Shown piece after piece: positions 46,830 to 47,400 of a DNA stretch of 64,000 bases. The position numbers and the translations under genes were made by a program. This DNA comes from Aotus nancymaae (lineage: Eukaryota): positions 27,048,907 through 27,112,906 of the forward strand of contig NW_026988463.1 of assembly GCF_030222135.1 (NCBI RefSeq). The letters run 5' to 3'. The notes beneath the pieces were generated by a model that was not told where the DNA came from, did no database searches, and saw nothing but the letters and a program-made list of their open reading frames with translations. Position 1 is the stretch's first letter. Each line of letters starts with the position of its first letter.

Positions 46830-47400
46830 GTCCTGGGAACCCCATTGGGAGGGTCCAGTCTCTGGGGTGTCCATCTTTGGGGAAAACCCGTACTGAAAGG
46901 GGTCCATCTATCCTGTGGAGTCCCCATCCTGGGGTCTCCAGCCAGAACTCTTTACACGGAGGGTCTCTCTTCTTGGGGTGGTCTGCATCTCAGGGTTCCC
47001 ACTGGAGACTTTATTTTGGGAATCACCATCCTGGAGGTCCCCTCTGGGGGAGCGACCTCATCCTAGAGGAAGCCATTCTTAGGGTTCATGTTCAGAGGCC
47101 TTCTATCCTGGAGAGCCTCATCCTGGGATTCCCATCCCATGGCGTCTTCATTCTGAAAGTCCCATCTTGAAGATTTCCCAGCTGAGGCTTTCAATTTTAG
47201 GGATCCCTGTAACTCCCCATCCTAGGGTATCCACAGCTGGGGAGTCTTCATTTCAGTGGTGTCTCCATCGTAGGAGGTGTCAATCCTGGGGTTCTCCTGT
47301 TTCAGGGCTGGTTTCTCATCTGGCTCATGGCCTGGAGAAGGTTCTGTCCTCTGGGGTGACTTCATGGGACAGAGGCCAGCCCTGGGCCAGGTCCCAGCCA
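46830..47400. repeat. Degenerate minisatellite, about 15-bp unit (consensus near yCCATCCTGGGGrTC), roughly 30 copies, in SEZ6L2 intron 6
   Basis: Successive units: gtccatctttgggg / tccccatcctggggtc / tctcttcttggggtg / gtctgcatctcagggtt / aatcaccatcctggaggtc / ccctctgggggagcg / acctcatcctagaggaag / ccattcttagggttc / ttctatcctggagagcc / tcatcctgggatt / cccatcccatggcgtc / ccatcttgaagattt / ccatcctagggtatc / cacagctggggagtc / aatcctggggttc ... Confidence 0.7.

Follow-up and report, generated by a model that had tools for sequence, protein, structure and literature searches.

Is the periodic sequence behind the sixth coding exon of SEZ6L2 in Aotus nancymaae an active minisatellite, an element with a function in the transcript, or what is left of an old repeat? 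The question concerns positions 46830-47400 of a stretch of 64,000 nucleotides (contig NW_026988463.1, assembly GCF_030222135.1), the whole of which is called the window here. A first-pass annotation, made from the letters only, had described this segment as a cryptic degenerate minisatellite of about 30 copies of a unit of about 15 bp, placed it in intron 6, and considered it G-rich and capable of length polymorphism, G-quadruplex formation and binding of splicing factors. The array was characterized in the window and in the orthologous introns of other mammals. With a probability of roughly 0.8, it is a fossil minisatellite that expanded before the split of the primate-, ruminant- and rodent-like lineages, then froze, and has been decaying at the local intronic rate.

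Periodicity and extent of the array

The units of the array are arranged head-to-tail, are 12-21 bp long (mean 15.4 bp), and show 67% identity to the consensus GTCCCCATCCTGGGGT and 59% identity unit to unit. Together they make up about 70% of the intron. The consensus is an imperfect palindrome, CCCCA-TCC-TGGGG, with one C-run and one G-run in each unit. The array and its two best-preserved units are the following:

46831..47323, + strand: decayed minisatellite, 32 units of consensus GTCCCCATCCTGGGGT, recognized by periodicity statistics and by orthologous arrays in other mammals
46920..46933, + strand: best-preserved unit, GTCCCCATCCTGGG, holding the sole exact CCCCATCCTGGGG of the window
47209..47228, + strand: second well-preserved unit, gtaacTCCCCATCCTAGGGT, with 15 of the 16 consensus positions

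Wrap-around local alignment of the segment to GTCCCCATCCTGGGGT gave a score of 236, against 18.4±3.9 (maximum 34) in shuffled sequences. The autocorrelation of 46830-47400 showed a broad peak at lags 14-17, with a match fraction of 0.31-0.33 and z values of 2.9-4.1 computed from dinucleotide-preserving shuffles, as well as harmonics near 30, 44, 61-63 and 75 and significant troughs at lags 4, 8 and 10. A sliding score, defined as the identity at lags 14-17 minus the identity at off-period lags, was obtained for 300-bp windows along the 64 kb. The highest value was that of 46835-47134 (0.14, compared with a mean of -0.007 and a standard deviation of 0.018, that is, about 8 standard deviations), the best unrelated 300-bp window scored 0.043, and the signal of the array extended from about 46810 to about 47340.

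The check with Tandem Repeats Finder (TRF), proposed in the first-pass annotation with a silent result counted against a repeat, gave a divided answer. No rows were returned for 45500-48500 at a minimum score of 30 with 2/5/7 or 2/7/7 scoring, whereas relaxed parameters (2/3/5, PM 75, PI 20) placed a repeat of period 15 at 46899-47297, with 26.6 copies, a score of 86, 48% matches, 19% indels and the consensus GGGGTCTCCATCCT. Since three other statistics were strongly positive, the silence at standard settings reflects a limit of sensitivity and not the absence of a repeat. Autocorrelation, wrap-around alignment and relaxed TRF agree on a cryptic degenerate array with the unit length and copy number first proposed, and the four motif variants quoted for it were all found in the sequence. 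As to its extent, the start just 3' of the exon was placed correctly, but the 3' end lies nearer 47323-47340, so that the original boundary was about 70 bp too generous.

Unit-like sequence was also seen at the exon ends. The first 63 nt of the downstream CUB exon (47496-47558; CATCCTGTGGTG GCACCATCCACAATG CCACACTGGG...GTGTCCCCAGAGCCTGGGG) align to four consecutive units with a score of 36, which is reached by 0.2% of the 170-nt segments elsewhere in the window, the other high scorers being poor C-rich alignments. An extension of the array into the 3' end of exon 6 (CCATCCTGG) was not significant (p about 0.05). These likenesses could be due to chance or could hint at the seed of the array, and they are treated as a curiosity and not as evidence of its origin.

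Orthologous arrays and their probable decay

Orthologues were gathered by searching the translation of an open reading frame (ORF) that reads from the exon into the repeat against the protein collection:

46661..47170, + strand: read-through pseudo-ORF of 169 amino acids, 46 from the exon and 123 from the translated repeat

The search yielded 19 ORFs, 18 of them with a Sushi Pfam annotation; all 19 represent this SEZ6L2 locus and none is identical to the ORF of the window. Both flanking exons were present in 16 of the contigs L001-L020, with identities of 87-97% and 90-97%, respectively, and the loci comprised 10 distinct sequences. The introns between them are 588-944 bp long, all with GT..AG ends. 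Loci L009 and L004 are closely related to the window, with 88-89% identity over about 1.4 kb. Loci L002, L003, L006, L007 and L011 show about 73-75% identity to it, and the rodent-like L008 and L015 are the most diverged, with an intron identity of 0.53-0.64. The exon-7 ORF of L015 (P0024) occurs on 18 contigs, which is consistent with a heavily sequenced rodent.

Locus L001 carries two lineage-specific insertions inside the orthologous array (at about 3015-3115 and 3290-3530), which we take to be ruminant Bov-type short interspersed elements, the longer one especially; its intron reaches 944 bp because of these interruptions.

The array was recognized in eight of the 10 distinct orthologues, with wrap-around scores of 178-250 (shuffles about 18±4), compared with 40-48 in L008 and L015. 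In the alignment the introns are colinear from splice site to splice site, and individual units are recognizably orthologous. Compared with its orthologues, the array of the window showed an identity of 0.68-0.74 for distant loci, 0.88 for close ones and 0.53-0.54 for the rodent-like ones, that is, equal to or slightly below that of the adjacent intron segments in each case (0.71-0.81, 0.81-0.91 and 0.57-0.64, respectively). Mean column conservation, computed on the nine non-rodent sequences, was 0.860 for the array, 0.864, 0.855 and 0.868 for the three flanking intron segments, and 0.953 and 0.967 for the exons. Within the unit, all positions were conserved at 0.80-0.91 and none stood out. 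Conservation did not differ between columns in which the inferred ancestor agrees with the unit consensus and those in which it departs from it (0.859 vs 0.856, Mann–Whitney p=0.98), and the substitution rate was equal at both kinds of column in every species.

Orthologous units are more alike (0.71-0.89) than units within the array (0.59), where proximity makes no difference to similarity (0.588 for adjacent vs 0.589 for distant units); therefore, there has been no homogenization or recent duplication since the lineages split. The majority consensus of the species gave wrap-around scores of 316-332 over about 560 bp, or about 35 units, higher than any living sequence (178-250), which is the pattern expected of decay from a more regular ancestor. 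Even this consensus reaches only about 74% identity to the unit, so that the array must have been old by the time the sampled lineages diverged. Neutral substitution was simulated by mutating the majority consensus at the observed divergence of each species. Five species in well-sampled clades showed the expected periodicity, with z values from -0.35 to 0.66. The fastest lineages, which are the rodent-like ones (d=0.375), have lost the periodicity and kept an intron of 588-608 bp with its flanking exons.

Changes in unit number were also observed. The window lacks exactly one 16-bp unit at 46975, between units 10 and 11 (GGGTTTCTCCATCCTT in L009). This unit is kept by L009, L004 and all the other species, indicating a lineage-specific deletion of a single unit. 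In the primate loci the array is longer, by about two units (about 30 bp), than in those of laurasiatherian type, and L009 has an 8-bp tandem duplication.

According to the explanation preferred here, a unit of about 16 bp, GTCCCCATCCTGGGGT, would have multiplied in this intron of SEZ6L2 into a tandem array of about 35 copies and about 560 bp, presumably via replication slippage or unequal exchange, and at a time that would predate the divergence of primates, laurasiatherians and rodents. Turnover would then have stopped, and the units would have been inherited one by one, accumulating point substitutions at the rate of the surrounding intron and a few unit-sized indels, so that the periodicity would stay visible in slow lineages and be erased in the fastest ones. 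The array is probably without sequence-specific function beyond being intron and incidentally supplying G- and C-runs, and we infer that its decay may have been strictly neutral.

Several observations weigh against this explanation. The intron segments that served as neutral yardsticks are all close to exons (within about 350 bp), and equal conservation therefore means that the array is no more constrained than the nearby intron, and not that it is strictly neutral. The G-runs are twice as many as composition predicts, with 20-30 in all nine non-rodent species, an excess that a fossil array would explain and that weak selection for G-run density would also explain. The periodicity in the primate sequences and in L001 exceeds that of the simulation (z 2.3-3.0), and about half of the changes at non-matching columns of these sequences go toward the unit consensus. 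This excess may be due to a majority consensus dominated by one clade, by which the changes would be mis-polarized. Finally, the RNA folds somewhat better than shuffled sequences (z=-2.4, 20 shuffles).

Alternative explanations

The composition of the intron is balanced, with 28.4% G and 27.7% C, each unit pairing a C-run with a G-run, and the description of the array as G-rich does not apply. Similarly, the proposed formation of G-quadruplexes found little in its favour: no G3+N1-7 motif is present on either strand, and the only candidates have long loops (up to 12) and fall in a single cluster:

46823..46882, + strand: cluster of six G-runs, +24 to +83 from the 5' splice site, the only site with a long-loop G-quadruplex pattern

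The G-runs of this cluster are partly conserved.

The main rival to a fossil, unlikely in our estimate, is a weakly selected density of G- and C-runs acting in splicing. The array would then be a regulatory platform on which about 25 G-runs serve as intronic enhancers bound by hnRNP H/F, with C/U-rich stretches for PCBP or PTB, the G-runs contributing to the definition of the sushi exon's 5' splice site, the intron being short. Clusters of this kind are known from alpha-globin intron 2 and the GH1 intron 3 enhancer, and G-triplets near 5' splice sites are said, by McCullough and Berget, to enhance the splicing of short mammalian introns. The array resembles such clusters in that many GGG and GGGG runs lie in a short intron (588-944 bp in every species), several of them within 100 nt of the 5' splice site (six at 46823-46899), and in that the G3+ runs of the intron number 25, compared with 11.1±2.7 expected from composition, and 20-30 in all the non-rodent orthologues. 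However, any array with GGGG in its unit would show this excess, so that the runs, known here from the sequence, are by-products of the repeat, and they are not preferentially conserved: conservation at the unit's G positions is 0.846-0.912 (array mean 0.86), columns matching the consensus do not differ from the rest, and the array as a whole does not exceed the flanking intron. L001 has lost the first G-run, L008 and L015 have other sequence in its place, and about half of the runs are missing from the rodent-like loci, which keep 10-11 (shuffles 5.6-7.3) and yet have both exons and canonical splice sites intact. It is quite improbable that the array is not fully inert in a more diffuse manner, the density of G- and C-runs, and not single units, being kept in most mammals as a splicing or co-transcriptional signal. 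If this were true, the intron would be a landing pad for hnRNP H/F and PCBP or a stretch prone to RNA polymerase II pausing or R-loops, and rare unit-sized deletions, such as the 16-bp loss in the lineage of the window, would modulate the isoform output of SEZ6L2 at 16p11.2. A conserved RNA structure, in which alternating C- and G-runs would pair and so compact the intron or bring its splice sites together, is scarcely credible. Each unit is self-complementary and the minimum free energy is -302 kcal/mol compared with -282±8.6 in shuffles, but this difference comes from only 20 shuffles and is of the size expected of any repeat of C-runs and G-runs. The covariation term of RNAalifold contributes -3.9 of -133 kcal/mol, the consensus energy is less than half of the single-sequence energy, no Rfam match was obtained at E values up to 1, and conservation is not in excess. 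To our knowledge, none of the CTCF, ZNF143, EBF1, RBPJ, STAT or E-box motifs fits the unit consensus, and no claim of a binding site is made. A CpG island in the intron was ruled out (observed/expected ratio 0.16).

A young homogeneous array with a 16-bp unit was observed on L021 (positions 556-922 of the ENA ERZ25039380 contig k87_64051), with units TGTCCCCATGTCGGGG / TGTCCCCATATTGGGG and 89-92% matches. It shares with the array of the window the unit length and the TGTCCCCAT...GGGG frame, and its unit agrees at 13 of 16 positions with TGTCCCCATCCTGGGG, the rotated form of the window unit. It differs in being young, in being embedded in satellites with periods of 80, 142 and 222 bp, and in the absence of the SEZ6L2 exons. 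The likeness is probably convergent, between G4-N-C4 palindromic units, and not a sign of homology. The presence of this young array indicates that palindromic 16-mers with G4 and C4 runs can amplify.

It is very unlikely that the array of SEZ6L2 is still active, that is, a length-polymorphic variable number tandem repeat (VNTR) able to slip, recombine and form G-quadruplexes or hairpins. Its likeness to the hypervariable minisatellites of the Jeffreys type, which are G-rich and have 10-60-bp units, consists of unit length, tandem arrangement, GC-richness and intronic position, and its possible activity is favoured by the few unit-sized indels between lineages (the 16-bp loss in the window, the additional 30 bp or so in primates and the 8-bp duplication in L009), by the imperfect palindrome CCCCA/TGGGG of each unit and by the capacity of similar units to expand, as on L021. 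Unlike those minisatellites, the array has no G-richness of one strand, no canonical G-quadruplex motif and no PRDM9 13-mer on either strand. Its units are only 59% alike, with adjacent units no closer than distant ones, which argues against recent duplications, and orthologous units are closer than paralogous ones, which argues against concerted evolution. Intron length was the same in two, four and three independent samples of three species (L004/L005, L011-L014 and L015-L017, with one single-nucleotide difference in total), a small sample in which the individuals may be related. No paper was found that connects SEZ6L2 with a VNTR or other tandem repeat in this place. Hypervariability is unlikely because of the 59% unit identity and the lack of homogenization since the mammalian radiation, and length polymorphism, as first suggested, was not upheld; the array is probably a dead relative of the Jeffreys-type repeats and not an active member. 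It is most improbable that the segment, instead of having arisen locally, descends from an old interspersed element (a transposon containing a tandem region) or belongs to a dispersed family of minisatellites, and the first-pass exclusion of an interspersed repeat held for the 13-mer core and the periodicity within the window and for the translated searches. A related 16-bp unit does occur elsewhere, on L021, but the 13-mer core of the unit (up to 2 mismatches) has eight matches in the window, four of them in the array, with 4.2±2.1 expected, the matches elsewhere being no more than chance would give, and no other 300-bp window of the 64 kb is periodic. The read-through peptide matched ORFs of the SEZ6L2 locus in all 19 cases. 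The translation of an idealized array on both strands matched, weakly, only three ORFs among 5.8 billion. The best of them led to L021, the one contig examined, which is an unrelated satellite contig whose unit differs and in which the SEZ6L2 exons are absent. In addition, the array fills the intron without recognizable non-repetitive flanks of an element.

The locus, its pseudo-ORFs and the meaning of the array

The structure of the locus around the array is as follows:

46614..46799, + strand: SEZ6L2 sushi exon, with Pfam Sushi PF00084 (E=1.1e-10, profile positions 1-56 of 56) and the 3' end ...CATGG/GTGAGT
46800..47495, + strand: intron after the sushi exon, 696 bp, GT...AG, 56% G+C, CpG observed/expected ratio 0.16
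47496..47665, + strand: next SEZ6L2 exon, encoding the first half of a CUB domain

The sushi exon encodes the complete first Sushi (SCR) module and is 87-97% identical across the 20 orthologous contigs. Joined to the following exon (about 48.9-49.07 kb), the exon at 47496-47665 matches Pfam CUB PF00431 from profile position 1 (E=3e-5), which fits the location first given for the intron, between the sushi-1 and CUB-2 exons. By eye, in the six-frame translation, the sushi exon is the sixth coding block on the + strand, counting from the signal-peptide exon; its numbering as exon 6 of SEZ6L2, and that of the intron as intron 6, is consistent with the five coding blocks before it. A KCTD13-like gene lies upstream on the same strand (about 12900-30900), with a BTB domain that matches KCTD13 (PDB 4uij, E=1.9e-75) far better than KCTD10 (E=1.8e-51), and the gene with the array was identified as SEZ6L2 on account of this neighbour, given the human order KCTD13-ASPHD1-SEZ6L2 at 16p11.2, which we assume. 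No SEZ6-family entry was found in PDB, and no gene name was obtained from the protein collection, where the matches were unnamed metagenome or Logan ORFs and one pangolin "hypothetical protein".

Other features of the window were noted. The KCTD13 exons are visible in the translation of the + strand at about 12900-30900, and the last piece ends with HITHDERPHGQQIVFKD and a stop. The 5' end of SEZ6L2, at 36500-39800, is GC-rich and has many long overlapping ORFs on both strands, of up to 354 amino acids, which look like an artefact of CpG-island composition. Two Alu-like elements lie in intron 7 (47930-48560), where the non-primate orthologues do not align (47923-48587), and ORFs derived from Alu sequence mark the window as primate DNA.

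Besides the read-through pseudo-ORF, a second one was found wholly inside the repeat:

46821..47066, + strand: pseudo-ORF within the repeat, 81 amino acids

Both pseudo-ORFs and the peptide quoted for them in the first-pass annotation are present, and their interpretation as by-products of the repeat is supported: they are long because the unit contains no stop codon, the consensus being free of stops in every frame, and the indels between species are not multiples of three. The homologous read-through ORFs of other species end at differing places, in differing frames and with differing lengths. A coding or retained-intron peptide was ruled out by indels of 1, 2, 4 and 8 bp among the orthologues, by the differing frames and stops, and by conservation at the level of intron. 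The array thereby explains the long spurious ORFs leading out of the sushi exon that gene callers report in many assemblies. One ORF, P0019 (on a Logan contig of 1263 bp), joins exon 6 (up to ...SGYQLQ) with an antisense translation of exon 7, which is probably an assembly mis-join via the GCTGCAG common to both exons and not a real rearrangement.

Decayed or cryptic tandem repeats are the targets of tantan and ULTRA and are missed by TRF at standard thresholds (PMC11580682). The array of SEZ6L2 shares with them the head-to-tail arrangement, adjacent copies diverged to about 50-60% identity, invisibility to standard TRF, detection by probabilistic or periodicity methods, lack of homogenization and evolution at the pace of its surroundings. 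In nothing essential does it differ; with about 32 units it is on the long side, it occupies the greater part of an intron in a gene at 16p11.2, and its origin can be placed before the split of the primate-, ruminant- and rodent-like lineages sampled. It is an ordinary further case of a class known to be common and under-annotated, and its biological weight is little. Nevertheless, it is a clean example of an array missed by standard TRF. For the genetics of 16p11.2 and SEZ6L2, the result argues against regarding the intron as a probable hotspot of VNTRs or G-quadruplexes, and, more generally, it indicates that a minisatellite can stay recognizable for about the age of the placental mammals in slow lineages and be erased in rodent-like ones.

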